A program made the position numbers and the translations under genes. The notes beneath the pieces are model-generated. The model saw only the letters and a program-made list of their open reading frames with translations. It was not told the DNA's origin and ran no database searches. From IMG/VR virus record IMGVR_UViG_3300020048_000003: a DNA stretch of 59,049 nucleotides; one strand, written 5' to 3'. Origin of the DNA: a virus. Within the stretch, counting starts at the first letter, position 1, and every line of letters starts with the position of its first letter. Below, piece by piece: positions 1-22,311 of the stretch.

Positions 1-1
1 A

Positions 2-82
2 GAATTTGCAAATAATTTTGAACTATCACCTGAAAATAATATTTTACAAAGAAAAGATAAATTAAAAAAATTAAATGGATAG
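2..82 (+). CDS. 3' end of small protein with lysine-rich C-terminal tail (...NNILQRKDKLKKLNG); 5' partial at window edge
   Basis: Open frame from window start to TAG at 80-82; C-terminal R-K-D-K-L-K-K-L tail matches the tail family of downstream + strand genes; overlaps next ATG at 75. Confidence 0.4.
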   Translation, partial: EFANNFELSPENNILQRKDKLKKLNG

Positions 83-320
83 TATTGGACATAGAATAAT
101 AGAGAAAGTCGTAACTTTAGCTGAACAATATTCCTTAGAAGATAAAGTTATAATTTATGAATTGTTAAGACCATATTTTTTAAAACCTGATGATATGGAT
201 TTAAGAACCATATGTAAATTAGAAGCTTTTCTAAATACTGAACTTTTAATTATTCCAACCAAACAACAATGGAGAAAAATTAAATTAGAAAAATTAAACA
301 ATATTATAGATGGAAGTTAA
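75..320 (+). CDS. hypothetical small protein (81 aa), C-terminal WRKIKLEKL tail
   Basis: ORF track; ATG start; C-terminal tail-family motif; 11-nt overlap with next gene. Confidence 0.55.
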   Translation: MDSIGHRIIEKVVTLAEQYSLEDKVIIYELLRPYFLKPDDMDLRTICKLEAFLNTELLIIPTKQQWRKIKLEKLNNIIDGS

Positions 321-579
321 GAAGGATGATATTTTTGTTTGTAAGAAAAATTATGGTGTTTTTCATGCAAATAAATTTTATAAAATAAAAAATGTATATA
401 AAGATGCATTAGAAATTGATAATACAACATTTTATTTTGAGAAAGAGAAATATGATAAATGGTTATGTTTTATATGTCCAGCGAAAAAAACATGTTATAC
501 AAAACCTGTTTTTAAAGATTTCTTTTTTACCATAAAAGAAATAAGAAAAGAAAAATTAAAAAAGATAAAAAAGGTATGA
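310..579 (+). CDS. hypothetical small protein (89 aa), C-terminal IRKEKLKKIKKV tail
   Basis: ORF track; conserved lysine-rich C-terminal tail. Confidence 0.55.
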   Translation: MEVKKDDIFVCKKNYGVFHANKFYKIKNVYKDALEIDNTTFYFEKEKYDKWLCFICPAKKTCYTKPVFKDFFFTIKEIRKEKLKKIKKV

Positions 580-604
580 AAAATAAACTTAATAAACTTA
601 ATAT

Positions 605-805
605 ATGAAAATAAAACTTTTTAAGGCAAATCCATATTACCTTACTGCGGCAGAAGATACGATTAATGAATGGCTTTCAAAAAATAATGTATCTATCAGC
701 AGCACTAATATGGCTGAAGATGAAAATGGTATAGTAATTTCTATTTTTTATAGAACATTACCAGAAGAAAGAAAAGAGAAACTTGATAATATAAATAACG
801 TATGA
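605..805 (+). CDS. hypothetical small protein (66 aa), C-terminal ERKEKLDNINNV tail
   Basis: ORF track; tail motif; stop overlaps next ATG (ATGA). Confidence 0.5.
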   Translation: MKIKLFKANPYYLTAAEDTINEWLSKNNVSISSTNMAEDENGIVISIFYRTLPEERKEKLDNINNV

Positions 806-1116
806 AATTATACCAAGTAGGCGATACTGTCATAATAAAATCAGAAAAATGGTATTATTTGAATTGTGATCAAGTTGGATATGTTAGATATAAAGAAGTG
901 ACATCTAATTTTAATGATAAAATGTCGGCATTTTGTGGTATGAAAGCTATAATAACTTCAATTGATAACGACGCTTGGTCAAAGAATAAATATTGTTATA
1001 AAATTGATATAGATAAAGGAATGTGGCATTGGAATAATTTTATGTTTGAAGATATTAAAAAAATAAGAAGAAAAAAACTAAAAAAAATCAATGAAAAAAA
1101 GAATATGTTGTTGTAA
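802..1116 (+). CDS. hypothetical small protein (104 aa), C-terminal IRRKKLKKINEKK tail
   Basis: ORF track; tail motif; overlaps following gene. Confidence 0.55.
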   Translation: MKLYQVGDTVIIKSEKWYYLNCDQVGYVRYKEVTSNFNDKMSAFCGMKAIITSIDNDAWSKNKYCYKIDIDKGMWHWNNFMFEDIKKIRRKKLKKINEKKNMLL

Positions 1117-1378
1117 AAAATCTTATCTTTTACATGAAGAAGAATCAGAAGAAATTTTTTCATCTGGTAAATATTATAAATTCTATTCAGAAGATGATAG
1201 TCTTTTCTTCTGGGTCATTTATAATAAACATGGAGAATCTGGACACCAAGGTTGTAGATTTCACAATAACAAAAAAGATTATACAAAAAAAGGAAATGTT
1301 AATGCTTTTTATGAATTTTTTGATGAGGGAAGATTAATGAAATTAAAAAAATTAAAATCAATAGAAAATGGAAGATAA
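1091..1378 (+). CDS. hypothetical Cys/His-containing small protein (95 aa), C-terminal LMKLKKLKSIENGR tail
   Basis: ORF track; preferred over alternative frame 1134..1337 because it ends with the family tail and abuts the next start. Confidence 0.45.
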   Translation: MKKRICCCKKSYLLHEEESEEIFSSGKYYKFYSEDDSLFFWVIYNKHGESGHQGCRFHNNKKDYTKKGNVNAFYEFFDEGRLMKLKKLKSIENGR

Positions 1379-1826
1379 AATACAAAATGTAGATAAAGAA
1401 ACTTTATATAAATTTCTTGATAAAATTGCGAATAAACTTAATAACGAAGATATAGGAACGAACTCCACCTTTTCTTTACATAGACAAGGTACTTATAATG
1501 GTATGAAAATTAAGATTTTAACAAAACAAAAAATTGTTATTATTGATTCAGATATAAGAAACAATGTAATAAATTTACATATAACACAAGATGGATTAGA
1601 TAATTATAATTTCGCAACTTTATATAAAGATAATTCTGTTTCTTGTAAAAATTTCTTAAAACAAATAGAAATAGAAGATAAAAAAATTGCAACTTTGTTA
1701 AATGATATGTTGAAAGAACTGAAATCAATTGATAAACCTGTAAAAGTAGAAAATATTGAAAAGCCAAAAGTAAAAACAAGGTTCAATAAAATGCTTGATT
1801 CATTGAGAAATTGGTATTATAACTAA
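1368..1826 (+). CDS. hypothetical protein (152 aa)
   Basis: ORF track; ATG overlaps preceding stop region; coding-like composition. Confidence 0.6.
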   Translation: MEDKIQNVDKETLYKFLDKIANKLNNEDIGTNSTFSLHRQGTYNGMKIKILTKQKIVIIDSDIRNNVINLHITQDGLDNYNFATLYKDNSVSCKNFLKQIEIEDKKIATLLNDMLKELKSIDKPVKVENIEKPKVKTRFNKMLDSLRNWYYN

Positions 1827-1839
1827 ATTATCATAAAAT

Positions 1840-2037
1840 ATGAAAAAGTGTCCAAGATGTAAAGGTGATGGTGGTGATCCATTTTATAATTCAAAATGTA
1901 CAAGATGTTATGGTTCAGGACAAGTTCCTAATCAGGATCCAAAAAAATGTCCTAGGTGTGGTGGTGATGGAAGTGATCCATTTTATTATTCCAAATGTAC
2001 AAAATGTGGTGGCTCTGGTAGAATTTATGATATATGA
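1840..2037 (+). CDS. DnaJ-type zinc-finger mini-protein (4 x CxxCxGxG)
   Basis: CPRCKGDGG / CTRCYGSGQ / CPRCGGDGS / CTKCGGSGR arranged as two ~32-aa internal repeats; matches DnaJ cysteine-rich domain signature CxxCxGxG. Confidence 0.65.
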   Translation: MKKCPRCKGDGGDPFYNSKCTRCYGSGQVPNQDPKKCPRCGGDGSDPFYYSKCTKCGGSGRIYDI

Positions 2038-2190
2038 AAACTTGTCAATATTGTGAACATTATAAAAGTAAACAATGTTTACTTGTCCGAATTCAAAAAA
2101 ATGCTTTTGAGTCTTGTGATAAATTTATGAGAAAAAAGAAAAAAGTAAAAAATATTTGGGAAATATAATCTTTAATTTTTTTATTAAAAA

Positions 2191-2216
2191 AGATTTTGTA
2201 ATTTTGTGCAAAATCT
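2191..2216. promoter_or_regulatory. hairpin AGATTTTG-N10-CAAAATCT 9 nt upstream of the 2225 start codon; possible operator or translation-control structure
   Basis: 8-bp perfect inverted repeat read directly; contains TAATTTTG (TAnnTTTG-like). Confidence 0.25.
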
Positions 2217-2224
2217 AAATCATT

Positions 2225-2884
2225 ATGCAAACAAAATATTATAGTAATTTATATGTAATTGAGGATCCTAAAAGGGTTGAAAAACTACTTGATCTTTTTG
2301 TATTATCAGTAAAAAATGATTTGAGTAAATGGAAACAAGTTCTATCTACAAGGACGAACAAGAATTCTAATGATATTGATTTAATTCAATACATAAGTCC
2401 TAAATATAATAATGATTCTTTTATTGTGGAATATGCTTCCACAAATAATTACACAGTATATGGTGTTGTATATTTAGACGAAAAAACACCACAGATAACT
2501 GGTACTGGTTTGCAGATATTTGCAGATTGGGATAGATATGGTATGCCACCTAAAAAGATTCGTGCCGAATTAGATAAACTTAGGGATAATATTTTTGAGC
2601 AGGGTATTATAAATCTAGAAAATGCAATTGGTGGAAAAAGTGCAAAAAGTGAAAGAAAAGACAAATTGATGCAGTTAAATATTGAAACTTATAAAGGTAT
2701 GCTTGATGATTCTTTTAATGATTTTATTAAAGAACCAACACAAATGCTCGCAAAAATGATAGCAAGGACCGCATATGCTTTTAATTTGAATCATCATTTA
2801 CCTTATTCAGAATGGGTTGAAAAATTCAAAGATTATTCAATGGTTATAAAAGAAATTGAAAAATTAGATAACTATGAAACATAA
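2225..2884 (+). CDS. hypothetical protein (219 aa)
   Basis: ORF track; long ORF preceded by 125-nt AT-rich non-coding region. Confidence 0.7.
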   Translation: MQTKYYSNLYVIEDPKRVEKLLDLFVLSVKNDLSKWKQVLSTRTNKNSNDIDLIQYISPKYNNDSFIVEYASTNNYTVYGVVYLDEKTPQITGTGLQIFADWDRYGMPPKKIRAELDKLRDNIFEQGIINLENAIGGKSAKSERKDKLMQLNIETYKGMLDDSFNDFIKEPTQMLAKMIARTAYAFNLNHHLPYSEWVEKFKDYSMVIKEIEKLDNYET

Positions 2885-2967
2885 TTTTTATATTCTAATT
2901 TTTTTATTTAGAAAAAAGTTATATATTTGTATTCCAAAATAAATATAAACTTAAAACAAAAACAATT

Positions 2968-3540
2968 ATGAACTGGTATTCAATCTTTTATGCGTTAACG
3001 GTGTCTGACGGAGTTAAATCATTTTTTGACACGACATCAAATATTTTCACATGGTTTGCTGTTCTTTCTTTTATTTGCCTTGTCTGTCTTTCTATTGCAA
3101 AAGCAGTGATGGCTGGTGAAAATAACTGTAAAACTGATGAAGAAGAAAAAGTGGACCCTGAGGTACGAGCAATTACAAAAGCAAGGGTTTATACAAGAAA
3201 TTTCTTCTATACGATGCTTGGACTTTCTTTGTTAACTTGGGCTGGTTATGTTATGACTCCAACTAAGAAAGATTGTGTGATGATTATTGCCGGTGGTACT
3301 ATTGGTAATTTTTTACAATCAGATACAAATGCTCGCAAAATTCCTGGTGAGGCAATGAAACTTGGTGTTGTTGCACTTCAAGCTTGGCAATTAGAAATTA
3401 AAGATTTCTCACCAGAGGAAAAGAAAGCACTTGGTATTCAAACTCCAGAAGAAAAGAAAAAGGAGGATTTGAAGAGTAAATTAATTGGAATGACAAAGGA
3501 GGAAATCATAGCATTTGTTGATAGTACACTATTAAAATAA
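2968..3540 (+). CDS. predicted membrane protein (190 aa, about 3 hydrophobic helices)
   Basis: Hydrophobic segments FTWFAVLSFICLVCLSIAKAVMAG, FFYTMLGLSLLTWAGYVMTP, VMIIAGGTIGNF; K/E-rich C-terminus. Confidence 0.7.
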   Translation: MNWYSIFYALTVSDGVKSFFDTTSNIFTWFAVLSFICLVCLSIAKAVMAGENNCKTDEEEKVDPEVRAITKARVYTRNFFYTMLGLSLLTWAGYVMTPTKKDCVMIIAGGTIGNFLQSDTNARKIPGEAMKLGVVALQAWQLEIKDFSPEEKKALGIQTPEEKKKEDLKSKLIGMTKEEIIAFVDSTLLK

Positions 3541-3755
3541 TGATTACTGATCCAAAAGAATTAGCAAAACTGGATTTTTCACTATTGATTGAATATATGC
3601 GATATATAGTCAAAAAATATGATGATAATGCTCTACTTCAAGAACAATTTCAATTTCTAAATAATGACAATAATATAAATAATAGATATTGGACTTATGG
3701 TATAATTACTGGTTTACAAATGAAATACAAAGAACCTCTTGAAGTTTTCCTATGA
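3540..3755 (+). CDS. hypothetical small protein (71 aa)
   Basis: ORF track; TAATG overlap with upstream stop. Confidence 0.5.
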   Translation: MITDPKELAKLDFSLLIEYMRYIVKKYDDNALLQEQFQFLNNDNNINNRYWTYGIITGLQMKYKEPLEVFL

Positions 3756-3774
3756 AAAAAGAAATTAATACAAA

Positions 3775-3806
3775 TAAAAAAAGCCTCAAATTGAGGCTTT
3801 TTTTAT
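3775..3806. terminator. bidirectional intrinsic terminator between convergent genes
   Basis: A-run, GCCTCAAATTGAGGC hairpin (3783-3797), then T7-run. Confidence 0.7.
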
Positions 3807-4135
3807 TTCAGAAAATTAAAATTGTCGTTTAATATTTTATCAATTAATTTTCTTGCTGCGGGATCTCCACTCTGAGCATTCCATTTAGGTAAAGGTAGAT
3901 TTTTTCTTTTACAATATTTTAATAACCAATTAGCGCAATCAATTCCATCTTCATCTGATTGTAAATCAAAATCAAAACATATAGCATCTGGAAGTCCATG
4001 CTCCATAATATATGCTTTGAATTGTTGAGGAGTTTTTGCCCATATGGTATCAAATGGTTTAGGTATTGGACTAAATACCAACCAATCATCCTTTAAAGGA
4101 TTTCTATAATCGTCTAACCAAAGTAGTGTTTTCAT
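3803..4135 (-). CDS. hypothetical protein (110 aa)
   Basis: ORF track; stop immediately followed by terminator. Confidence 0.65.
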   Translation of the reverse strand: MKTLLWLDDYRNPLKDDWLVFSPIPKPFDTIWAKTPQQFKAYIMEHGLPDAICFDFDLQSDEDGIDCANWLLKYCKRKNLPLPKWNAQSGDPAARKLIDKILNDNFNFLK

Positions 4136-4136
4136 T

Positions 4137-4676
4137 TTATTTTTGTTTTTGTTGTTGTAATTTCTGGTGTTGTGATTTCAAATATTTTATTTCTTTCATC
4201 ATTATATTCATTGATTTTTCCAATCTTAAAAGAATTTCATCTTCGTTATCATCATCATCATCTTCATTTATTTCTTCAACATCTTTTTGAATTTCTTCAA
4301 CATCTTTTTGAATATCTTCCATATCCTCTTGAATATCTTCCATGTTTTCTTGGATTTCTTCAACATTTTCTTGGATTTCTTCAACATTTTCTTGGATTTC
4401 TTCAACATCTTCTTGGATATCTTCCTGAAGTTGAGCCATTGTATTAATTTTTTTTGCTTGAATATTCAAACTCATTTGAATAAAAATTGAAAAATAGATT
4501 GCTTCAAGTGAAACTATTGTAGTAAGAGTTAGTAATATTACATCAAATTTAATTCCCATAAAATATAGAATGAATGCGGCTATAAACAATATTGTATGTA
4601 ATATAACCGATTCAATTGAACCCATCCATTTTATAAATTTTAACGCGATTGCCTCTATTCTTTCGTTATTTATCAT
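4137..4676 (-). CDS. membrane protein with two N-terminal TM helices and C-terminal acidic tandem heptad repeat (VEEIQEN)n
   Basis: Hydrophobic N-terminal half; 21-nt DNA tandem repeat encodes EDVEEIQENVEEIQENVEEIQEN... then a D-rich stretch. Confidence 0.7.
   Translation of the reverse strand: MINNERIEAIALKFIKWMGSIESVILHTILFIAAFILYFMGIKFDVILLTLTTIVSLEAIYFSIFIQMSLNIQAKKINTMAQLQEDIQEDVEEIQENVEEIQENVEEIQENMEDIQEDMEDIQKDVEEIQKDVEEINEDDDDDNEDEILLRLEKSMNIMMKEIKYLKSQHQKLQQQKQK
4272..4427. repeat. 21-nt tandem repeat (about 7 copies, ttcttcaacatctttttgaat-like) inside CDS 4137..4676
   Basis: Direct reading of + strand; in-frame heptad coding repeat. Confidence 0.7.
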
Positions 4677-4864
4677 GCTATTGTACCATATTCAATTTTA
4701 CCTAATTCATCGTATAGTTCTTGTAGTCTATTTTCTTCCCAGAGTTTAATTGGTTTACAATTAAAAATTTTAGAAAACGTGTTCATCCATTCGGCAAATT
4801 TATCAATTGTACCAAAGACATGAACACCTTTTTCTAAAACAATTCTTCTATTCATAAATTTCAT
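4673..4864 (-). CDS. hypothetical small protein (63 aa)
   Basis: ORF track; ATGA overlap with upstream gene. Confidence 0.5.
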   Translation of the reverse strand: MKFMNRRIVLEKGVHVFGTIDKFAEWMNTFSKIFNCKPIKLWEENRLQELYDELGKIEYGTIA

Positions 4865-5174
4865 TTTGAATTTTCTCTAACTTTTGTTTTCTTATTATTT
4901 TTATACCAACATCACCTTTAAATTCATAACCTTTTCCAAGATACTCATGCAAAATATCACCATAATCATCTTCTGGTGTTCTTATTGACCAACACCCATT
5001 TCCTGTACCATCAAAAGAAACATAGAGATAATTAAAATCATAATATATCAAATCTTTGTCTCTAAAATGATCACCACCGATTTCATTTAATGAAGTCCTA
5101 TAACTTCCATTAATTCTATGAATTCTCCAGACCCATTTTATCATCCTATTGCAGATTTTATTTGTCTTTCCCAC
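4848..5174 (-). CDS. hypothetical protein (108 aa) with C-terminal IIRKQKLEKIQ tail
   Basis: ORF track; tail-family motif at C-terminus. Confidence 0.55.
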   Translation of the reverse strand: MGKTNKICNRMIKWVWRIHRINGSYRTSLNEIGGDHFRDKDLIYYDFNYLYVSFDGTGNGCWSIRTPEDDYGDILHEYLGKGYEFKGDVGIKIIRKQKLEKIQNEIYE

Positions 5175-5383
5175 TTTCTCAATCTCAATTCAAATTCATC
5201 GGTATCTGGAAAGTCAAATCCTTGAACAAAAAATTCAGATTCAAAAAATCCTTTTTCTTCTCTAACAGAAACCGTTGCATTCGGATACTCATATTTTAAT
5301 GTATCAACACTTCTCTGTAGTGAGTTTCTTATTTCCGACCTATAAATGGCACCTGCTTCTATACTGAATCTAAACTTTGCCAT
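5141..5383 (-). CDS. hypothetical small protein (80 aa)
   Basis: ORF track; packed with neighbours. Confidence 0.5.
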   Translation of the reverse strand: MAKFRFSIEAGAIYRSEIRNSLQRSVDTLKYEYPNATVSVREEKGFFESEFFVQGFDFPDTDEFELRLRKWERQIKSAIG

Positions 5384-5564
5384 TTTCTTCTATGAGTTTA
5401 TTTGTGAGTTTAAAAAATTCAATGTGACCTTTGCAAGTGATTTTTTGTCTCTCTTTTAATATTGCAAAAGAATCATCATTTGTATTGATAACCGTGAAAC
5501 CTGCGTCTTTTAACTTTTTAGTGGCTTCATTAATCCTGATAGATAAAGGAATATATTCTGTCAT
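5370..5564 (-). CDS. hypothetical small protein (64 aa)
   Basis: ORF track; ATGA overlap with upstream gene. Confidence 0.5.
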   Translation of the reverse strand: MTEYIPLSIRINEATKKLKDAGFTVINTNDDSFAILKERQKITCKGHIEFFKLTNKLIEENGKV

Positions 5565-5875
5565 AGTTTATTTATTTTTTGTAATTTATCTTTTCTTAAT
5601 TTATTAAATTCTAACTTTTTTTGTTTTTCTATTTCTTTTTTTCTTTCATCTGCTTTATTTAAAAGTTTTGTTTTCATTTGTGAATAAGATATGTCACCAT
5701 TCATATATTCAGTAAATACTTTATCTAAAAAAGCATCTAATTCAGATTTAGGAGTAGGTGAAGAAATATTATTTTTTATTATAGAAATAATATTTAGTCC
5801 AGATATTATAGAATATAAGGCTCCTGCTAATGCAAAAATTGCGACGAATATTAATATACCTTGAAGAATTGCCAT
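5561..5875 (-). CDS. small membrane-anchored protein (104 aa) with C-terminal KLRKDKLQKINKL tail
   Basis: N-terminal TM segment MAILQGILIFVAIFALAGALYSII; tail-family motif. Confidence 0.6.
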   Translation of the reverse strand: MAILQGILIFVAIFALAGALYSIISGLNIISIIKNNISSPTPKSELDAFLDKVFTEYMNGDISYSQMKTKLLNKADERKKEIEKQKKLEFNKLRKDKLQKINKL

Positions 5876-5912
5876 TATTTTATTTTATTAAGTCTTCTTA
5901 GTTTTTGTTTTC

Positions 5913-6023
5913 TTATTTTAAGTTTTTCATTTTTTTATATTCTATTAGATATTTAATAGGTAATCCAAAAATTCCTATTAAAGCTAATATCATTAAAATT
6001 AAAATTATACTATCTATGGTCAT
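5913..6023 (-). CDS. hydrophobic 36-aa peptide (MTIDSIILILMILALIGIFGLPIKYLIEYKKMKNLK), below ORF-track size cut-off
   Basis: Manual translation of minus strand; single predicted TM helix; located in otherwise empty 200-nt gap. Confidence 0.3.
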   Translation of the reverse strand: MTIDSIILILMILALIGIFGLPIKYLIEYKKMKNLK

Positions 6024-6795: not shown

Positions 6796-6954
6796 TTATT
6801 TAGGTGGTTCTTTCTTTTTTTCTTCTATTTTTATATCTCCTTTTCCTTTACAAGTTGGACAAGTATATGAGTGTCCTTCATCATTTCTTCTATAACCTCG
6901 CCCATCACAATCATGACAAATGAGGTATTTTTTCTCTGAAATATCTTCATTCAT
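6796..6954 (-). CDS. 52-aa zinc-ribbon mini-protein (CHDC...CPTC), below ORF-track cut-off
   Basis: Manual translation MNEDISEKKYLICHDCDGRGYRRNDEGHSYTCPTCKGKGDIKIEEKKKEPPK; start overlaps stop of 6954..7301 by 1 nt (TAATG). Confidence 0.45.
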   Translation of the reverse strand: MNEDISEKKYLICHDCDGRGYRRNDEGHSYTCPTCKGKGDIKIEEKKKEPPK

Positions 6955-7301
6955 TATAAATTATATTTTTTTGAATCTCTTGCTAATTTTAAATCATTTG
7001 ATTTAAAATCTTTTCTTAATCTTGTTGGTACAATTGTTATTTTATAATCATATGCGTTTTCAATTAACCAAACTTGTGCTTTTGAATAATCTGTAATCAT
7101 ATCGGCTATTGTAAATTCTTTTTGTTTTCTCATAAATTGTGTTTCTAATTGCTCATTTACCATTGTAATAAGACAATCCCTTGCACTTTCTTCATTATCA
7201 AAAACTTCAATTTGAACATCAGCATCAGTGAACCATTCAGCTACGACGACCCATAAATCATATGGTGTGATTCTATTTTCAAATATTTTTAAGTGTTTCA
7301 T
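6954..7301 (-). CDS. array cassette protein (first member at this end)
   Basis: N MKHLKIFEN / C DSKKYNL; ATGA overlap with upstream gene. Confidence 0.8.
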   Translation of the reverse strand: MKHLKIFENRITPYDLWVVVAEWFTDADVQIEVFDNEESARDCLITMVNEQLETQFMRKQKEFTIADMITDYSKAQVWLIENAYDYKITIVPTRLRKDFKSNDLKLARDSKKYNL

Positions 7302-7645
7302 AAATTATAATTTTTTGCTGTCATATCTAAAAATGCCTGTTCCATATCATCAAATGAAAAACTAATATAAAAAGTGCTGATCAATTCGCCATTATTGTCA
7401 TTAAATACTTCTAAGGTGAAAACAAATTCATTTTGATCTTTACCACATCTAGTAATAATTAAATCATCTTCTGGTATCAGATAAGGCTTATCTCCATAAT
7501 CTGGATAATAGTGTTTATCTTTTGCTAATGCAGTATATTCTTCTATAACAAAAGGTCTTATTGATTTAGTAAAATCCTCATATTCTTTTAGAATCTTTGT
7601 TGCTGATTCTATTGTGTAATTTTCGTATATTCTTTTTACTTTCAT
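7298..7645 (-). CDS. array cassette protein
   Basis: N MKVKRIYEN / C TAKNYNL; ATGA overlaps both sides. Confidence 0.8.
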   Translation of the reverse strand: MKVKRIYENYTIESATKILKEYEDFTKSIRPFVIEEYTALAKDKHYYPDYGDKPYLIPEDDLIITRCGKDQNEFVFTLEVFNDNNGELISTFYISFSFDDMEQAFLDMTAKNYNL

Positions 7646-7896
7646 AAATTATATTTTTTTGCATCTCTGTAGGCAGAACTTCTAATAAAATTTAATTCTT
7701 TTAACACTTCATCAAAATCTTCATCATGAAAAAAATAAACATCATAATCTGAATTTTGATCTTTTTGTATTAAATTACTTCCTAATAAATATCTAATTTC
7801 TGTTTCTCTACATTCAAAACTTTCATCTCCTGAATCGGAATATAAATAATAATCTTCCTCATCTTCCTCTTCTTCAAATAGTTTAATATATTTCAT
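7642..7896 (-). CDS. array cassette protein, acidic
   Basis: N MKYIKLFEEEE / C DAKKYNL. Confidence 0.8.
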   Translation of the reverse strand: MKYIKLFEEEEDEEDYYLYSDSGDESFECRETEIRYLLGSNLIQKDQNSDYDVYFFHDEDFDEVLKELNFIRSSAYRDAKKYNL

Positions 7897-8225
7897 AAGT
7901 TATATTTATTTGCTTGTATTATTATTTCTAAATCTTCTCTATTTTTAGAATAATATAAAATTTCATGTTTTTCAAATATTCTAAGAGATACATTTTTATC
8001 GTGTTTTCTAAAATAGTGTTCAAGTCTTTTTGGTATTTCTGAACTAGGATAGACAACGTAAACATTATCATTTTGTAAATCTGCTCCTATGAATGTAATC
8101 TGACCAACATTATTACATAAAAAATTATTGATATCTTCACCATAAGATGATTTCATAATAACATAATCATATATTTCTGGTTCTTCAATATTTTCGTTAT
8201 TAAATTTTTCAAATACTTTTATCAT
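7893..8225 (-). CDS. array cassette protein (MIKVFEKF N-variant; EILYYSKNRE subfamily)
   Basis: N MIKVFEKFNNEN / C IIQANKYNL. Confidence 0.8.
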   Translation of the reverse strand: MIKVFEKFNNENIEEPEIYDYVIMKSSYGEDINNFLCNNVGQITFIGADLQNDNVYVVYPSSEIPKRLEHYFRKHDKNVSLRIFEKHEILYYSKNREDLEIIIQANKYNL

Positions 8226-8623
8226 AAATTATATTTATTTGCTGCAAAAAATAAATCAATATCATCTGGTATTTCATGCTGTAATATTTCTTCATATGTT
8301 TTTCTTGTTTCACGAACTATTAATTTAAATATATAATTACCATTTTTTGTGGAACCTTCTGAGGGCCAAGGTACTGCAATATCTGGTATATGCTTATTAA
8401 TAAAAAATACTATAGATTCAGCAGGACCTTTATTAGCGTTAGGAAAATAGCATTGTATATAATCTAGTTTTATATATTTTGCACCAGTCCAATATTTATT
8501 TAAAAAAGATTTTAGATTTTTTGCTTTATTTATCATCTCTTCAGTATCCATACCACAATCAACCTTATAAATAGCAACATACCATTTATATTCATTAGTA
8601 AATTTTTCAAATATTTTTATCAT
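8222..8623 (-). CDS. array cassette protein (MIKIFEKF N-variant)
   Basis: N MIKIFEKFTNE / C AANKYNL. Confidence 0.8.
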   Translation of the reverse strand: MIKIFEKFTNEYKWYVAIYKVDCGMDTEEMINKAKNLKSFLNKYWTGAKYIKLDYIQCYFPNANKGPAESIVFFINKHIPDIAVPWPSEGSTKNGNYIFKLIVRETRKTYEEILQHEIPDDIDLFFAANKYNL

Positions 8624-9243
8624 ATATTATAATTTATTGCTACTTCTAAGTAATCATATTTTTTCTTCAAATCATCTGGTAAAAATTTTTTACATAATTT
8701 ATAATTTTCAGGATGATTTTCTAATAACCAATCTATAAAGGGTTCAACACCAGGTATTAATATTTTTTTAGGATTATGATCAGGATTTGGATATATAGTT
8801 TCAGTTAAATATAACTCAATTAAGTTATAGTTTGAATCAAAATTATATCCATATTTTACCATATTCTTTAGCATTTCTACCATCTTAGGTGTTATTACAC
8901 GTTTACTACCATCATATTTTTTTTCACCTATTATATCAGGTAAACTAATACTATTAATTGAACTATCATCTCCCCAACCATTTGCGTAATCTGATTGTAA
9001 TAAATATTCAATCATTTTAAATTGATCATTTTCCAATGCAGTGGCAAAGAGATTAGAAATTATATCTCCTGCGTTTGCTATATCGTATCCATTATCCAAT
9101 AAATAATTTAAGCCATCAAAATCTCCTTCTCTTACAATATCAACAATAAACTTATTACCAAGTTTTTGAATTAATCTTTTCTCTTTCTTTTTCTTGGCTT
9201 TTAAGTAGTCTGCTTCAGTAAATTTTTCAAATACTTTTATCAT
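8620..9243 (-). CDS. array cassette protein (207 aa, MIKVFEKF N-variant)
   Basis: N MIKVFEKFTEAD / C AINYNI. Confidence 0.8.
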   Translation of the reverse strand: MIKVFEKFTEADYLKAKKKKEKRLIQKLGNKFIVDIVREGDFDGLNYLLDNGYDIANAGDIISNLFATALENDQFKMIEYLLQSDYANGWGDDSSINSISLPDIIGEKKYDGSKRVITPKMVEMLKNMVKYGYNFDSNYNLIELYLTETIYPNPDHNPKKILIPGVEPFIDWLLENHPENYKLCKKFLPDDLKKKYDYLEVAINYNI

Positions 9244-10481
9244 AAATTATATTTTTTTACTAATAACTCCATAATTTCGGGAATATGATCATATTCATTT
9301 ATAATTTTTGGATGTAATTTATGTACTATATATTTTGCATTATTTTCATCTATATCCAATATCATTTTTTGAAATTCATATGATTTTGTTATTTTATCAT
9401 CCATTCCAATTAATTTACCAATTATACTTGGATTTTGTTTCATTTTATTAATCCAATATTTTTCATTGTTATGTGTTATTCGTCTTGTTATATATGGATT
9501 TTCTTTACCATTATAATTTGATATTATATCATATGCTAAATCTAACTCTGGTTGTGCTAAATATTTATCAAATCTTTCATCTTTTGGATGGTCAAATCCC
9601 AAAAAATCCGATTTTCTTTTTAACGCGTCTAATGCGTTATATTGATCTTGATGACTCTGTGCATCTAATATCATTTTCAAATATTTCATATCAACTCCTC
9701 TATCACTTAATAAATCTATCAATTTAAAAAAGTTTATTTCATATTTATCAATATCATGTGTTGCATAACCTGAATATGAATAATCTCTTGCTTTAATTTT
9801 TGAATTTAATAAAATTGGTAATGCCTCATAATTATCTTTACATACAACATTATAAATGTGTCTGCAGGTGACTGGTATATTTAATTCTTCTACAAGATAT
9901 TTTATTAAATCTGGTGTTGTATTATATTTAGTTGCTTCATCTAAACAATTTTCTTCTGCGTGAGTCCAAGTTGCTTGTATTTTTTTTGTAGGGTCTAAGC
10001 CTTTATTTTTTACAAAGTATTTAACTAAATCTACTTGACCATGAAAAGCAGCAATTCTTAATAACTTTGAATCTAACTTAAATCCTAATTTTTCTAAAAA
10101 ATCAAAAGTTTTATTTCTATCATCAGTTTTAGCGTGATGTATTACATATTCTAAAAAATTATTACGATTTGTTAAAAATTCTTTATATAAATCATTTTTT
10201 AACATTACGGTTTTGAATGTTTCAAAATCAAGAAATGTTATACTTCTTTCTAATCTTATCAATTCTCTTAAAGGAAGTATATCAAGTAAAGCAATTACCA
10301 TTTCTGGAAATTGTTTAGTACAACTCCAGTGAAACAAATCACTTACACTTCCTTCTATTGTATGGTTTTTTATTTTATCTAAATAATAATCAACGTCACG
10401 AATTTTATCATTAAAAAACTCGTCATATAAGGATTTTTTAGGCATCTTTTTTTTAGCCTCAAATAATTTTATATATTTCAT
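9240..10481 (-). CDS. array cassette protein, large (413 aa) with ankyrin-like repeats
   Basis: N MKYIKLFEAKKK / C VKKYNL; LLRIAAFHGQVDLVKYFVKNKGLDP ankyrin-like segments. Confidence 0.8.
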   Translation of the reverse strand: MKYIKLFEAKKKMPKKSLYDEFFNDKIRDVDYYLDKIKNHTIEGSVSDLFHWSCTKQFPEMVIALLDILPLRELIRLERSITFLDFETFKTVMLKNDLYKEFLTNRNNFLEYVIHHAKTDDRNKTFDFLEKLGFKLDSKLLRIAAFHGQVDLVKYFVKNKGLDPTKKIQATWTHAEENCLDEATKYNTTPDLIKYLVEELNIPVTCRHIYNVVCKDNYEALPILLNSKIKARDYSYSGYATHDIDKYEINFFKLIDLLSDRGVDMKYLKMILDAQSHQDQYNALDALKRKSDFLGFDHPKDERFDKYLAQPELDLAYDIISNYNGKENPYITRRITHNNEKYWINKMKQNPSIIGKLIGMDDKITKSYEFQKMILDIDENNAKYIVHKLHPKIINEYDHIPEIMELLVKKYNL

Positions 10482-10768
10482 AAGTTATATTTTTGTGCTG
10501 ATTTTTCTAATTCAAATTTTTCAATTTCTTCTGGTGTCATTTTTCTTTCTATATCATCATCACAAATTATAACTTTTCCTATTCCAGAATCTTCATCTAA
10601 AATAGCTTCTGCTTCGTAATCATCCATATTTGCCTCATCATTCCACCAATGATCTAATATTTTTACAAACGGCTTTACCATCCAATCACTTTCGGATAAG
10701 ATAACATAATCTCCAATTTTATATTTTACCTCAGATTGAGAATCTTCAAATGTTTTTATATATTTCAT
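10478..10768 (-). CDS. array cassette protein, G-D-Y-V mini-domain type
   Basis: N MKYIKTFEDSQ...KIGDYVIL / C TPEEIEKFELEKSAQKYNL. Confidence 0.8.
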   Translation of the reverse strand: MKYIKTFEDSQSEVKYKIGDYVILSESDWMVKPFVKILDHWWNDEANMDDYEAEAILDEDSGIGKVIICDDDIERKMTPEEIEKFELEKSAQKYNL

Positions 10769-11067
10769 AGATTATATTTTTTTGCATCATGCTCTAATTC
10801 AAGTTGTTCAGATTCTTCTTTTGTTAGTTTTCTATCAACTTCATATCCATAAAATTGAGCACCAAGTCCTTCATCTTCACCTGTTAAAAATACACCTTGA
10901 TAAAAAATATATCTTGGATCATTCTTATTAAAATCGGTATCTTTGGTGATTCCAATTATTTTCATGTATTCTGCTACAATATCTGCCATTCTTGAAGTCA
11001 CGATAACAATATCATTGATTTTATAAACTGGATAAAAACTTTCCTCAAACAATTTTAAATGTTTCAT
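10765..11067 (-). CDS. array cassette protein, mini-domain type
   Basis: N MKHLKLFEESF / C ELEHDAKKYNL. Confidence 0.8.
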   Translation of the reverse strand: MKHLKLFEESFYPVYKINDIVIVTSRMADIVAEYMKIIGITKDTDFNKNDPRYIFYQGVFLTGEDEGLGAQFYGYEVDRKLTKEESEQLELEHDAKKYNL

Positions 11068-11591
11068 TTTTCTCCTTTGAATCCTATTTTTGTATCTTTA
11101 TATGCGTTTGTATTTTTATACATATTTGAACCATACATTTGTTTTTCTATTTCTTTTCTTTTTACATAAGAAGTTATATCTTTTAAATTAGCAAATAATT
11201 CTTCTGGTTTTGTTTCAGATGTTATTCCAGTTCTCATTGATACTCTATTAATTATAATTTCATGAGTATCAAAATAATTTTTAAATTCACTAATAATAGA
11301 CATTGCTTCATATTGATTAATAGCAGTAAAGAGTAAAAATATATTACAATATTTTTGTTTATCTTTAAATGGATTAAATGAAGATGGTGCTTTTTCTATA
11401 ATAACTTGAAATTGAGAAAATCCCAATCCAGCAATATATTGTATAAAATCTTCTTTTATATTTTTGAATTTTTTTATACCTGATTCGGTGGTATTAATAA
11501 CAAATCCAAAACCTTCTTCTTGAAAATGTTTATATCCTGCGGCTTTATACGGTCCTGTATAAAACTCAAATAAGTTGTAATTTGTTATCAT
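11064..11591 (-). CDS. array-embedded protein (175 aa) lacking the KYNL C-terminus
   Basis: N MITNYNLFEF (degenerate tag); ends KIGFKGEK; downstream junction absent. Confidence 0.65.
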   Translation of the reverse strand: MITNYNLFEFYTGPYKAAGYKHFQEEGFGFVINTTESGIKKFKNIKEDFIQYIAGLGFSQFQVIIEKAPSSFNPFKDKQKYCNIFLLFTAINQYEAMSIISEFKNYFDTHEIIINRVSMRTGITSETKPEELFANLKDITSYVKRKEIEKQMYGSNMYKNTNAYKDTKIGFKGEK

Positions 11592-11594
11592 ATC

Positions 11595-11978
11595 TTATAG
11601 ATTATATTTTTTTGCCATTATTTTTAATTCTAATTCTTCTTTATTCTTTGAGAAATATTTAATTTGGTCTGTGTAAGTTTTATCATTATAAACCAATAAA
11701 TATTTTTTCTTTTTATCATTACTTTTATAATCATCTTCAAAACAGCTTCTAAATCCGTATGGTATATCATCTTCAAAATAAACTTTATAACCTAAGAAAT
11801 TTTCTCCACTATGTTTTTGCATTTTTTCTATTCTAACTATTTGACATATTGTTGTTGCTATAAATTTTTTAAATCCTTGAAACCTATCATTCCAAGGAAA
11901 TTTGGTTGGATTTAATAATACATAATCACCAACTTCAGGTAATTGTTTTTGTGCTTCAAACAATTTCAAATATTTCAT
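11595..11978 (-). CDS. array cassette protein
   Basis: N MKYLKLFEAQ / C LKIMAKKYNL. Confidence 0.8.
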   Translation of the reverse strand: MKYLKLFEAQKQLPEVGDYVLLNPTKFPWNDRFQGFKKFIATTICQIVRIEKMQKHSGENFLGYKVYFEDDIPYGFRSCFEDDYKSNDKKKKYLLVYNDKTYTDQIKYFSKNKEELELKIMAKKYNL

Positions 11979-12484
11979 AAATTATATTTTTCTATATTTT
12001 TATAGAATTCAATTGGTTCTAATTGTTCTTCAATTTCTTTACATATAACTTCAAATTCTTTTATTATATCATCAAATATATTATTCTTTTTAAGAACGTC
12101 TTGTATTTTTGGGTAATATTCTTTTGTAAAATTCATGTATAAATCAATTGGTAAAAATTCATTATACTCAGTACCCCAGAAATGTGATAGATTACTAGTT
12201 CTATAGTGAGATATATTATTTAATGTTGTTGTAAAATAATATAAATCAAATGTGTTCAATCCTTCTTGTATATCACGAGTTCTCAATTTTATTTCTCTTA
12301 ATTTCGGATCATTTAATTTATTTGATTTCTTACGAATTAAATCTAATATTCCAACAATTCCATTAAATTGGCTTTGTCCTATGGACATACAAAAATAATC
12401 ATTTGTATTGTATTCAAGTACAAATTCATCACAAGAATATACTATTTTTTGGTATCTATTTTCAAATAATTTTAAATATTTCAT
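11975..12484 (-). CDS. array cassette protein (169 aa)
   Basis: N MKYLKLFENRY / C KNIEKYNL. Confidence 0.8.
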   Translation of the reverse strand: MKYLKLFENRYQKIVYSCDEFVLEYNTNDYFCMSIGQSQFNGIVGILDLIRKKSNKLNDPKLREIKLRTRDIQEGLNTFDLYYFTTTLNNISHYRTSNLSHFWGTEYNEFLPIDLYMNFTKEYYPKIQDVLKKNNIFDDIIKEFEVICKEIEEQLEPIEFYKNIEKYNL

Positions 12485-12876
12485 AAGTTATATTTTTCTG
12501 CGTCTTCAAATCTATCAATAATATCTTTGTATTTTGGATCATATTTTAATCTACTATCAAATCCTACGGTATCATATATAATTTGTTCTTTACCTAAATT
12601 TATTATTGATTTTTGTAAATCTAAATCATTTTGTAATCTTCTTTTAAAATCCCAACTATCTTCAAATTCTTCTAAATTTATACCTTTTTCAACTAAATGT
12701 GCAAACATTACAAAAGGATCATAACATGCTTGAACTAAAGCTTCTTCATTATTTATATCATAACCTTTATTAAGAAAGAAATCAACTATCTTAATTTCTC
12801 CAGTTTGAACAGATTTTTTAAATAGCAAATCTTTCATTTCCTTAATATTATTATATTTTTCAAATAATTTAATCAT
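12481..12876 (-). CDS. array cassette protein
   Basis: N MIKLFEKYNN / C EDAEKYNL; preceded by divergent intergenic region. Confidence 0.8.
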   Translation of the reverse strand: MIKLFEKYNNIKEMKDLLFKKSVQTGEIKIVDFFLNKGYDINNEEALVQACYDPFVMFAHLVEKGINLEEFEDSWDFKRRLQNDLDLQKSIINLGKEQIIYDTVGFDSRLKYDPKYKDIIDRFEDAEKYNL

Positions 12877-12916
12877 AATATTTTATATATATAAAAAAAT
12901 AAATATTTATTTTTAG
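12877..12916. promoter_or_regulatory. 40-nt AT-rich divergent intergenic region (candidate promoters for 12876<- and ->12917)
   Basis: Only non-coding spacer between divergently oriented genes; TATATATAAAAAAATAAATATTTATTTTTAG. Confidence 0.3.
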
Positions 12917-13819
12917 ATGATAGATTTAGTATTAACAATGATAGCCGCGTATGATGATTATGAAACCGAACTTGGTTTTACAAAAGATGATATAAATAAT
13001 ATCATCAAAAAATATAAAGCACTTGATGATTTAAAAGAAAGTAATGAAATAGGATGGATCATTTTGTGGAAAAACAAGTATATTTCAAATGAAATATTTG
13101 CAAAATTAATGGATGTTGAATACGAAGATAAGGATTTTTGGATTGTGTGTGATAATTTTGATGATGTTTTATCTAAGGAATATGAAACAGAAATTGAAAT
13201 TTTAGATGGTAATTTAGATTGGGAACCAGGTGAAACTTATGATGTTGAATTATATTATCATTGGAACTCATTTACAGAAGAAACATTAAAAGACATAGTA
13301 AAATTTTGTATTGATAAAGGATTTGAAATTGATGATGAATTAATGACAGAAGAAAATACAATCTTTAAAGATGGTGATATATATTTTATTGGTTCTGATG
13401 ATGAAAAAAGAATCTATGATCTATTAAATGATGATGAATTGGAAGATTTAAAAAGTTCATTAAATATCGCAATATGTGAAGCACAAGAAAGTGCTGATCA
13501 GAGTGAAATGTATAGAGCTGTAAAAAAGGCTTTTATAAATTCAGTTGGCGAATATAAATATAAAACTATCAATGTAGATGGAAAAGACGAAGAGAAATTA
13601 TATATTAGAATGGATATAGATTGGGTTGATATTGAATCTAGATTAAAAGATGAATATGGTGATTTTGACTTTGATACAGAAAATTATGGAAGTCTTCTTT
13701 ATATATTAAAAGAATATGAATATTTTGATTTTAGAGTACCCGATTATGATCGTTTATCTGGTAGTATTGATGATGATATAATGAATGAATATATTCAAAA
13801 TCGTTTAGAGTGGGATTAA
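12917..13819 (+). CDS. acidic hypothetical protein (300 aa) on opposite strand, interrupting the array
   Basis: ORF track; D/E-rich; convergent 4-nt overlap with 13816..14685. Confidence 0.7.
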   Translation: MIDLVLTMIAAYDDYETELGFTKDDINNIIKKYKALDDLKESNEIGWIILWKNKYISNEIFAKLMDVEYEDKDFWIVCDNFDDVLSKEYETEIEILDGNLDWEPGETYDVELYYHWNSFTEETLKDIVKFCIDKGFEIDDELMTEENTIFKDGDIYFIGSDDEKRIYDLLNDDELEDLKSSLNIAICEAQESADQSEMYRAVKKAFINSVGEYKYKTINVDGKDEEKLYIRMDIDWVDIESRLKDEYGDFDFDTENYGSLLYILKEYEYFDFRVPDYDRLSGSIDDDIMNEYIQNRLEWD

Positions 13820-14685
13820 AGATTATATTTTCCAGCGTCTCTTTTCATTATTTTATTTTTAATAAATTTCATTGCTTTCTTTTCATCTCCCACATTTTGT
13901 AAAATTTCATATTTATCACCAACTAAAAAATCTTTTGTTTTACCAAAAATTAATATCATATTTTCTGTAGGTTCAAGATATTCAATATCAAAACTATTTA
14001 TGTCTTTTTCAAATGCTTTTTTTACATCTAATATTGTTTTATTATCATCAATAAAAAACTCTATCATTTTATAAAAAAAGTTTGTATTTAAAAAAACAAC
14101 AGAATATGTATCATACTTTTTAGTTTCTGAGCATATAGATTGAATTTTTTTTGCTTCTTTTGGTGGTATAGTTGTAATACTTCTGAAACTTGAACGAATA
14201 CTATCACCAGTGCTCAAATCGTAAATGAAATTTTTAGCAACATCATAATAGAAATCTTCCATATCTGGATAACTTTGTAATATAAATTTTTCACCTAAGT
14301 CGTATTTATAATAGCCATAATAATATTTTATAAGTTTTTCATCTGGTTCACCATCATCTAAAGTATTACCACCTAATGGATAATCTTTATCAAAATGATA
14401 TAAAACATAATCCATAAAGAAACCGTGCATTGTAAAATTAAAATCTTTAAGAATTTTTTCTCTATATTCTCTATAGAAATTTTCAAAATTAAAACCTTCT
14501 TCTAAAAGTTCATCTAATAATTTATTCAAATATTGATCAAGTTCATTTGTATCAGTTTTAAAATGACGTGTAAAATTTCCAGTTAAATCAGTATAGTCTT
14601 CATTTACTTCAATAAAATTAATAATAAATTGATAGATTTGTTTGGATAATTCCGCATATGCATATTCTTTATAATTTGTTTCCAT
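13816..14685 (-). CDS. array cassette protein (289 aa), atypical N-terminus
   Basis: N METNYKEYAY / C RDAGKYNL. Confidence 0.75.
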   Translation of the reverse strand: METNYKEYAYAELSKQIYQFIINFIEVNEDYTDLTGNFTRHFKTDTNELDQYLNKLLDELLEEGFNFENFYREYREKILKDFNFTMHGFFMDYVLYHFDKDYPLGGNTLDDGEPDEKLIKYYYGYYKYDLGEKFILQSYPDMEDFYYDVAKNFIYDLSTGDSIRSSFRSITTIPPKEAKKIQSICSETKKYDTYSVVFLNTNFFYKMIEFFIDDNKTILDVKKAFEKDINSFDIEYLEPTENMILIFGKTKDFLVGDKYEILQNVGDEKKAMKFIKNKIMKRDAGKYNL

Positions 14686-14690
14686 AATGT

Positions 14691-14918
14691 TTATATATTA
14701 TATTTTTCAGCATCAATTTCATATTCAGGCACGTGTTCTATATGATTTTCATCTATCCAACCACATTTATTTCCCCAAGCATCTAATAGATAAACCCTAT
14801 TATAATTAACATTTTCAACTTTAAATTTAGTTCTCTTATGTGGTTCATCAAGTATGAAAACTATATCACCAGTTTTAAATTTTGGCTTTTGTTCTTCAAA
14901 TATTTTAATATGTTTCAT
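14691..14918 (-). CDS. array cassette protein, 75-aa G-D-I-V mini-domain
   Basis: N MKHIKIFEEQ...KTGDIVFIL / C VPEYEIDAEKYNI. Confidence 0.8.
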   Translation of the reverse strand: MKHIKIFEEQKPKFKTGDIVFILDEPHKRTKFKVENVNYNRVYLLDAWGNKCGWIDENHIEHVPEYEIDAEKYNI

Positions 14919-15355
14919 AAATTATATTTATTTGCATTTTTTCTCATCTCTCTTTCTTCAAAGAAGTCAGGATGATATTTTAAAAATACTTGTTTAATTT
15001 TTGGTCTATCTCTAAGTTGTGTTGTTTTATTTGCCCAATCAAAAACATCAAAATCATCATCTACTTGATGATATACATCAGCACCATTTTCTATTAATTC
15101 ATCTACCATCTTCCAATTTGACCAATTTATAGCAGTCATTAAAAGAGTATATATAGTATGGTATGGTGATTGACTTATTTCTTCTTCCGAATAATTGTCT
15201 TGATTAGGATTTCCACCTTTTTTAATAGCATCTAAAAACTTCCAATAATCTTGATCCTTAACACTATCATATAAATTTTTATCAATTTCTTTTTGTGTTT
15301 CAGTTAATTCTGGCTCAGGTGATTTCTTAAAATAATCTTTGAATTTTGTAAACAT
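14915..15355 (-). CDS. array cassette protein with ankyrin-like repeat
   Basis: N MFTKFKDYFKK / C NANKYNL; LLMTAINWSNWKMVDELIENGADV. Confidence 0.75.
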   Translation of the reverse strand: MFTKFKDYFKKSPEPELTETQKEIDKNLYDSVKDQDYWKFLDAIKKGGNPNQDNYSEEEISQSPYHTIYTLLMTAINWSNWKMVDELIENGADVYHQVDDDFDVFDWANKTTQLRDRPKIKQVFLKYHPDFFEEREMRKNANKYNL

Positions 15356-15861
15356 TATAAATTATATTTTTTTGTAGCACCAAATAATGGATATTTTTCA
15401 TCAATATATTTTTTTACTTTTATTGTTGCAACATCATAAAAATCTTTACCTTCATTATTTCTAATTGTCATATCAGGATCAAATTCTAAAATCAATTTTA
15501 CATTTTTAATATCATCTTTTGAATTTTTAGTAATAGTAATTAATGGTGTATTACCTTCTTCATCTTTACTATCAACATCAGCACCACTCTCTAAAAAATC
15601 AACAACAGCAATCATATCTAAGTTTTCTGCTGCTAATCCAAGACATACATCAGGATCCGTAGGAACACCAAAATGATTTTCAATTCTTTCTTTTGCCTCT
15701 TTTTCTGATATGTGAAATTTTGAGGTGACTTGATTTATTATTCCCCATAAATCATCACTTGTAAAATAATCCGAACTATCATAATCTCTAAAATCCGATT
15801 TGAACCAATCTTCAAGATTCCATGGATCTCTTTTTTTTTCAAATGTTTTAATATATTTCAT
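15355..15861 (-). CDS. array cassette protein, ankyrin-repeat
   Basis: N MKYIKTFEKK / C ATKKYNL; DFLESGADVDSKDEEGNTPLITITKNS. Confidence 0.8.
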   Translation of the reverse strand: MKYIKTFEKKRDPWNLEDWFKSDFRDYDSSDYFTSDDLWGIINQVTSKFHISEKEAKERIENHFGVPTDPDVCLGLAAENLDMIAVVDFLESGADVDSKDEEGNTPLITITKNSKDDIKNVKLILEFDPDMTIRNNEGKDFYDVATIKVKKYIDEKYPLFGATKKYNL

Positions 15862-15863
15862 TT

Positions 15864-16214
15864 TTATAAATTATATTTTTTTATATTTATCATAACATCT
15901 AAATTTGAAATAAACTCAAATATCTCTTTATAATTTTTTATTTCAAATTCTTTATCTTTCCAAGCACCACGTTTTGATCCATCTGGATCAACACTTGCAA
16001 TTTTATTCATATAATCAACAATCACTATATCTTCATCATTCCCTTGAAAAAGTATGTATGGTCGTTCATCTGTGTGTCCATGTATAGATTCATAATCAGA
16101 ATAAGTATTATATACATATTTAACATTTAATCCCTTATCTTCTAGATATTTAAGTAATTTTGTTAATTTTGTTTTACCTTTTCTTTTAGTTTCAAATAGT
16201 TTAATATATTTCAT
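15864..16214 (-). CDS. array cassette protein
   Basis: N MKYIKLFETK / C INIKKYNL. Confidence 0.8.
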   Translation of the reverse strand: MKYIKLFETKRKGKTKLTKLLKYLEDKGLNVKYVYNTYSDYESIHGHTDERPYILFQGNDEDIVIVDYMNKIASVDPDGSKRGAWKDKEFEIKNYKEIFEFISNLDVMINIKKYNL

Positions 16215-16516: not shown

Positions 16517-16518
16517 AA

Positions 16519-17084: not shown

Positions 17085-17085
17085 T

Positions 17086-17559: not shown

Positions 17560-17560
17560 A

Positions 17561-22309: not shown

Positions 22310-22311
22310 TT

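Follow-up and report, generated by a model that had tools for sequence, protein, structure and literature searches.

Many small proteins encoded by a 59,049-nucleotide stretch of the virus record IMGVR_UViG_3300020048_000003 of IMG/VR (the window, to which all coordinates refer unless another contig is named) end in the same short, lysine-rich tail, R-K-x-K-L-x-K-I/L. This C-terminal helix motif is real, occurring far more often than chance allows, recurs in related phages, and owes its conservation to the amino acids rather than to the DNA. It is also previously undescribed, the searches of Pfam, PHROGs, PDB, BFVD and the literature having returned nothing on it. The tail is predicted to form an α-helix of about 15 residues, made up of a cap, a hydrophobic residue and then R-K-x-K-L-x-K-[I/L]-(N), and is attached to numerous small proteins in a lineage of large, uncultivated tailed phages of 22-26% GC. 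Its sequence and the structural models suggest that it serves as a shared interaction or address helix acting at the protein level, with a partner that is only postulated; we give this proposal about an even chance of being right.

The window holds 151 genes when open reading frames (ORFs) are called greedily by length, is about 97% coding and has a GC content of 23-28%. Its codon usage is extreme (AAA for 90% of Lys, AGA for 77% of Arg, TTA for 63% of Leu), and lysine-rich peptides consequently look alike at the DNA level. This lends some plausibility to the view, already raised as an objection in the original prediction that first listed nine such tails, that the likeness is nothing but K/E-rich low complexity produced by A-rich codons in a genome of 24% GC. 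The shuffles argue otherwise. There are 6 copies of the strict form RK.KL.K[IL]; shuffling the residues of each protein gives an expectation of 0.006, and shuffling its last 24 residues alone, so that the tail stays K/E-rich, one of 0.009. The core R..KL..[IL] is found in the last 24 residues 10 times against 0.24 expected, so that the composition-keeping shuffles, of protein or of tail, yield 0.006-0.3 motifs where 6-10 are observed. In the DNA, the degenerate pattern AGAAARNNNAARYTNNNNAARMTH has 4 matches, all in frame and at gene ends, as compared with 0.05 in dinucleotide shuffles. The tails are therefore not A-rich low complexity.

Independent contigs show the same strong bias of the motif towards the C-terminus. 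A scan of IMG/VR with AGAAAANNNAAATTANNNAAANT returned at least 120 loci. Among the matches listed, 74 are in frame and preceded by 40 or more open codons, and 40 of these are no more than 12 residues away from a stop codon, where 8.4 are expected; these 40 come from 25 loci and from ORFs with a median length of 84 amino acids. With a relaxed motif, the listed loci contain 169 copies, 107 of them 0-9 residues from the stop. The tail is moreover kept in 118 of 120 listed database homologues of one of the families described below. The shuffles and the position bias together already refute chance likeness, the probability of which we regard as practically nil.

The loci rich in tails have 22-26% GC and derive from viral contigs of up to several hundred kb, some of them above 200 kb. 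They carry a large terminase subunit, a T4-type topoisomerase II and a gp5-like baseplate hub with a peptidase, as well as tail fibres and an NAD-dependent ligase. On one 235-kb JGI contig (L124) the tail ends 32-39 of 61 consecutive called genes, and one gene there belongs to the Pfam family T4_Y16D. Megablast of window positions 1..6000 against 50,697 phage records gave no match, and tblastn of P0045, a typical member of the barrel family (see below), against the cultured phages of INPHARED gave nothing. The only cultured-phage homologues found are in Bacteroides phages DAC16-DAC23. A search of viral contigs for loci related to the gene at 802..1116 found none, and a single-sequence homologue search with 310..576 returned one protein only, 94% identical. 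Nine DNA matches to E-Y-R-K-L-K-L-x-K were obtained in the representative genomes of GTDB, none of them ending a small ORF or lying near other tails; they are chance matches and give no clue to the host. A full-text search of the literature for the motif strings brought up only a variant of the rabbit CAP18 peptide, which is coincidental.

The proteins that bear the tail are diverse. BLASTP sorts 155 distinct tail proteins, compared without their tails, into 99 clusters. Three body classes have several members, an SH3-like barrel, a small helical family and a third family; hhalign gives a probability of at most 1.7% between these classes and of 95-97% within them. The kinds of body include SH3-like barrels and helical, membrane-anchored and Cys-rich proteins. 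The barrel family, with the consensus MKVGDKVVCI ... Y-x-I ... F-I-[ST]-x-K-E-Y-RKLKLEKLNE, has 152 matches in 5.8 billion proteins, all of them metagenomic, unnamed and 68-126 amino acids long. Its tail lies 1-12 residues from the stop in the 118 listed members mentioned above, and is also present in all members from the window. In an alignment of 121 sequences, where the mean column identity is 18%, F72, R79 and K82 are invariant and G6, Y24, K80, L81 and L83 reach at least 90%; in this, the largest family with the tail, six of the eight columns that are best conserved thus belong to the tail. Structural matches to the barrel are to the generic fold only, at 7-13% identity, and none has an R-K-x-K-L-x-K-I/L helix, while a fold search of BFVD gave nothing at E <= 1e-3. 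Scans of the tail proteins and 22 family members with Pfam and PHROGs assigned phrog_7488 to the body of 802..1116 and, at the borderline, DUF7244 to the body of one database member, but otherwise nothing consistent.

The original prediction held that the bodies are unrelated and that the group is defined by its tail only. This is true in part. A body-only hidden Markov model (HMM) of the barrel family, trained without the window proteins and without the tail and the residues just before it, accepts three of the 13 tail proteins of this genome, namely L001 699..968 (E 4e-12; L001 is a Logan contig described below), 310..579 (1e-5) and 2..82 (6e-5), which hence share an SH3-like body. The other ten do not fit (E >= 0.016 among 13 sequences); they include 75..320, with an E of 1, and 605..805. 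Residues 1-84 of 802..1116 are homologous to the N-terminal domain of gp6 of Bacteroides phage DAC16 (E 5e-13). In DAC16 gp6 this domain is followed by a different extension of 175 residues without the motif, and tails are absent from the adjoining small genes. At least one body can therefore exist apart from the tail. The syntenic neighbour, DAC16 gp5, had been suspected by eye to be a homologue of 605..805, but pairwise comparison gave no alignment.

A codon alignment of the tails looks very uniform (AGA AAA GAN AAA TTA NAA AAA ATA), owing to the codon bias noted above. The original prediction had left it undecided whether the tail is a second type of junction or linker in the DNA or a signal in the protein, to be told apart by comparison at the nucleotide level, and that comparison favours the protein. 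When the tail peptides of the window are re-encoded with the codon usage of the genome, the nucleotide identity between pairs averages 0.664 +/- 0.018; the actual window tails have 0.686, so that the peptide accounts for their identity, and the longest exact DNA that they have in common is about 15 nt. Among 39 tails from the window and L124, the conserved Leu5 is encoded by TTA 13 times, CTA 8, CTT 5, TTG 4 and CTC once, which is more varied than the background (63% TTA), and position 8 has Ile codons in some tails and Leu codons in others. Frame and residue order of the motif are constant, whereas the spacing between it and the following start codon ranges from -1 to 37 nt. The tail also occurs far from any gene that it could serve: 57523..57720 has no downstream gene on its own strand and converges with 57715..58143, and six tails of L124 are 52-226 nt away from the next gene. 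Finally, a 219-residue protein (2225..2884) carries a copy of the motif in its interior, of which R144, D146, K147, L148, L151 and N152 are invariant in three orthologues (57-62% identity). Codon variation, agreement with the null, tails without a close gene and the conserved internal copy all indicate that selection acts on the peptide.

It may nevertheless be argued that the peptide is a by-product of a DNA or RNA junction, which would work as an A-rich leader for coupled translation or for translation independent of Shine-Dalgarno (SD) sequences, as a recombination patch, or as both. Indeed, a start on the same strand follows the motif at 1 to 37 nt in 9 of the 10 window cases, as had been predicted, the exception being the convergent 57523..57720. 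A sequence resembling an SD site is found at -20..-4 of only 1 in 149 window genes, and the upstream regions are A-rich. The scarcity of such sites fits SD-independent initiation as in Bacteroidota. The Bacteroidota promoter motif TAnnTTTG is not enriched (109 copies against 116 expected) and its combination with an upstream TTTG does not occur (0 against 1.1). The last 50 nt of tail genes are nearly free of structure (mean minimum free energy, MFE, -0.6 kcal/mol, as against -3.9 for random coding 50-mers), and in L124 the third positions of the tails show a small excess of identity, 0.603 as against 0.516. Being A-rich and unstructured, the DNA of the tail thus doubles as a leader for the next gene, but this role cannot explain an ordered motif with an invariant Arg and Leu, in which the Leu and Ile/Leu positions switch codon family freely. 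Furthermore, about 120 genes of the adjoining array are equally coupled, through ATGA overlaps, and have no tail motif, and the tail junctions have no intergenic promoter and, with the last 50 nt folded, no stem-loop. A slippery A-run fusing each tail gene to the next by frameshifting was likewise rejected, because the frame offsets are inconsistent and most tails have no A-runs. The junction is thus quite improbable as the reason for the motif, and of the two options of the original prediction the basic helix signal is the better one. The leader function would be a compatible side benefit, not the cause of conservation.

Part of what is conserved at the gene borders may be traced to the way in which the genes multiplied. 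In tandem arrays of the barrel family (L124 9353..11624, and L020) consecutive genes overlap by 16 nt. The C-terminal N-E-S-R-R-stop that follows the motif is the -1 frame of the MKVGDK start of the next paralogue (AATGAAAGTAGGAGATAA), which opens with ATG AAA GTA GGA GAT (MKVGD). This dual-coding junction is conserved and comes from tandem duplication, so that the border block in part reflects the duplication of genes that overlap. Within the window, overlaps of the form NTA-TGA or ATGA make L or V the final residue ahead of TGA.

As for structure, the AlphaFold2 (AF2) model of 310..579, built from a multiple sequence alignment of 121 sequences, consists of a β-barrel and a helix at residues 75-87, the tail having a confidence (predicted local distance difference test, pLDDT) of 82-87. 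In a single-sequence model of 57523..57720, whose overall confidence is low, the tail lies at the end of a helix spanning residues 38-64. In most cases a helix cap (S/T-x-x-E or S/T-P-E) and a hydrophobic residue come before the motif. Plotted on a helical wheel, the residues R1, K4, L5 and I/L8 stand at 100, 40, 140 and 80 degrees, within an arc of 40-140 degrees, and would therefore form one mixed basic and hydrophobic face. The suggestion of an amphipathic basic helix as a signal hence holds as far as helicity in both models, conservation and occurrence on bodies not detectably related are concerned, while the amphipathicity is only weak (see below).

Such a helix could also be a structural or solubilising cap that packs on its own domain, stabilises very small proteins and is conserved for folding, no common partner being involved. 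It would resemble the C-terminal helix that packs on SH3-like barrels; AF2 predicts it with the same confidence as the barrel (pLDDT 82-87 as against 84-88), and an invariant Phe in the last strand and the S/T-x-x-E cap come directly before it. Against this, the ordered motif, including its exposed Arg and Lys, is kept on bodies predicted to be barrels, all-helical or membrane-anchored, and a folding role would not demand identical charged residues in each of them. The exposed basic residues are in fact the most conserved columns, and in DAC16 the homologue of the 802..1116 body lacks the motif. A cap is, in our opinion, an unlikely explanation, though a less remote one than the junction. A PDB sequence search produced only sub-threshold matches; in one of these, the C-terminal helix α-5 of H-Ras (FYTLVREIRQHKLRKLN; ...REIRQHKLRKLN) aligns with the family's tail and the residues before it at E 0.6. 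This match is almost certainly a coincidence, but supplies a solved example of a similar ending by strand, cap and basic helix.

We return to the proposal of an interaction or address helix, which rests on the helix being the only conserved surface of fast-diverging proteins. The tail would offer a constant docking surface, its basic residues arranged around a Leu and Ile/Leu anchor, on bodies that are free to vary. Dozens of different small phage proteins would thereby gain the same partner, be it a host protein, a phage protein or a nucleic acid, or the same destination. Small genes that were duplicated in tandem and then diverged probably account for most of the spread of the tail, which in some cases would have been gained or lost by bodies already present. 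A more specific version makes the tail an address tag that routes fast-evolving small effectors to one destination or machine, such as a hub or protease of the host or, for co-injection, the virion. Two tagging systems would then exist side by side, the basic C-terminal helix and, on the adjoining array, an N-terminal tag (MKTYEKFI / MKYIKLFE) like the capsid targeting sequence (CTS) of phage T4. Judged from the sequences, this version is a speculative one and probably not correct.

Several observations weigh against a common docking role. Docking itself is something that we infer from conservation. The helix is weakly amphipathic, with a hydrophobic moment (muH) of 0.11-0.49 and a mean hydrophobicity of -0.22 to 0.22; the corresponding values of an FtsA peptide, 0.61 and 0.41, are higher. 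Membrane-targeting helices of the MinD and FtsA type have a high hydrophobic moment and a broad hydrophobic face, whereas the tail has two constant hydrophobic residues only and may differ from them. If L5 and L8 were packed on the protein's own barrel, the helix could be structural in the barrel family. A profile of the tail only (28 columns) retrieved, from 1.84 billion representatives, nothing but the window's own three proteins at E <= 1e-3; such a profile is too short to reach significance, so the breadth of bodies is undersampled. In L124, moreover, the tails are a little more alike in their nucleotides than the null (0.634 as against 0.599 +/- 0.008), and Arg is encoded by AGA in 38 of 39 tails, as compared with 77% in the background; recent paralogy or selection for A-richness therefore contributes.

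The tail genes of the window lie in three parts, on either side of the array: 2..1378 (+), 4848..5875 (-) and 57168..57720 (+). The nine tails first described are all present at their positions and with the sequences quoted for them. For one of these genes, 4848..5144 (-), the start is now placed at the ATG at 5144 instead of a GTG at 5174. The wider search for members that had been recommended enlarged the group by a tenth gene and the internal copy, both in the window, and by three genes further upstream. The latter lie on L001, which is identical to the window and extends it by 1384 bases upstream; 9 of 10 consecutive genes there bear the tail.

Table 1. Tail-bearing genes of the window and the internal copy of the motif.
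Feature	Position	Strand	Tail or motif sequence	Motif position	Remarks
Tail gene, 3' end	2..82	+	RKDKLKKL (motif)	50..73	Full gene is L001 1242..1466, 74 amino acids
81-amino-acid tail gene	75..320	+	WRKIKLEKLNNIIDGS-stop	273..296	
89-amino-acid SH3-like barrel tail protein (predicted)	310..579	+	IRKEKLKKIKKV-stop	544..567	
66-amino-acid tail gene	605..805	+	ERKEKLDNINNV-stop	770..793	Stop and next start overlap in ATGA
104-amino-acid tail gene	802..1116	+	IRRKKLKKINEKKNMLL-stop	1066..1089	
95-amino-acid Cys-rich tail gene	1091..1378	+	GRLMKLKKLKSIENGR-stop	1331..1354	Variant R-L-M-K-L-K-K-L
98-amino-acid tail gene	4848..5144	-	IIRKQKLEKIQNEIYE-stop	4869..4892	
104-amino-acid tail protein	5561..5875	-	KLRKDKLQKINKL-stop	5573..5596	N-terminal transmembrane segment
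124-amino-acid tail gene	57168..57542	+	FVRSEKLKKIEIHFQDEISGS-stop	57483..57506	Tenth gene, absent from the original prediction
65-amino-acid tail gene	57523..57720	+	KRKEKLEKISSL-stop	57685..57708	
219-amino-acid protein with internal motif copy	2225..2884	+	SERKDKLMQLN (SERKDKLMQLNIE)	2654..2677	

Most of the window is taken up by the tandem array of about 120-130 genes, which occupies the minus strand at 6954..57114 and continues at 57715..59048. Its genes start with MKYIKLFE, MKTYEKFI, MKTYENFISD or MIKVFEKF, end in A-x-KYNL-stop and are joined by ATGA stop-start overlaps. The prohead protease of T4 follows the rule L/I-x-E, which L-F-E and F-I-x-E of the array would fit. The N-termini of the array closely resemble the CTS of T4, MKTYQEFIAE (PMC8442874). 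On the strength of these sequences the array may encode a very large set of internal proteins that are packaged in the capsid and injected. At the gene ends (AAA TAT AAT TTA TGA) the codons for K-Y-N spell TATAAT, the -10 hexamer of sigma-70, two bases before the next ATG; this is so near the ATG that transcription could not begin ahead of the start codon. Weak matches to ankyrin repeats occur in one member, 9240..10481, and a single gene on the plus strand, 12917..13819, interrupts the array and encodes 300 amino acids with no family assigned.

A few other genes lie among the tail genes and next to the array. The small proteins at 1840..2037 (+) and 6796..6954 (-) are made of zinc-finger repeats of the DnaJ type, CxxCxGxG (PF00684, E 2.5e-6 and 1.8e-5, below the gathering score), and are also Anti-TRAP-like. 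The 179-residue protein at 4137..4676 (-) combines N-terminal transmembrane segments with an acidic 7-residue repeat (EEIQENV / EDIQKDV), coded by 8 copies of a 21-nt tandem repeat at 4255..4424. A stand-alone receiver-like domain, cREC_REC (PF20274, E 3e-16), is encoded at 3803..4135 (-), where the plus-strand and minus-strand blocks converge.

Most genes of large phages are small ORFs without recognisable relatives, and a constant helix gives a handle on such dark matter. The tail defines a gene class that can be searched for, and points to four or five residues that probably make up the functional surface. Should it prove to be an address or adaptor tag, it would be the equivalent of the T4 CTS at the C-terminus, and might be used to direct cargo in phages whose hosts are AT-rich, SD-independent and probably Bacteroidota-like. 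Were it a structural cap only, it would define a new but ordinary domain family.

Among known systems, the C-motif-2 of ClpX substrates may come to mind, exemplified by the RRKKAI of MuA, a basic motif formed by the very last residues. The tail was rejected as a signal of this kind, since 2-12 variable residues come after the motif. In the hyperplastic regions of T4-type genomes, mobile regulatory cassettes called PeSL place an early promoter and a stem-loop between small ORFs. Like the tail, they are short repeated modules that border small, fast-evolving genes in large T4-type genomes and could in principle promote shuffling. However, PeSL are intergenic DNA with a promoter and a hairpin, whereas the tail lies inside ORFs, is conserved as a peptide, has no hairpin (MFE -0.6 kcal/mol) and shows no DNA identity in the window beyond that of the peptide; it is not a PeSL-like cassette.

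The architecture resembles that of certain adaptors. SspB carries a C-terminal peptide that binds ClpX, and the ankyrin proteins of poxviruses end in the F-box-like PRANC motif. There, as here, many paralogues with variable bodies share a short constant C-terminal element; in the adaptors the bodies bind targets and the element binds one common machine. The likeness is one of architecture only; there is no sequence similarity, and the tail consists of one short basic helix, whereas the adaptors have an F-box domain or an extended peptide that forms the very last residues.

The closest functional analogue, by analogy of design, would be the T4 CTS, a short constant peptide on the highly diverse internal proteins IPI-III (PMC3012670). 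The two differ in that the CTS is N-terminal, acidic and hydrophobic, and is removed by the prohead protease, whereas the tail is C-terminal and basic. The tail was accordingly rejected as a member of the T4-type CTS, having no consistent L/I-x-E site; a cleavage site for the prohead protease after the tail was rejected as well, [LI]-x-E being found in some tails only, where it derives from the overlapping ATG of the next gene. What the T4 signal and the tail have in common is the design itself, a short and constant terminal peptide on diverse small phage proteins.

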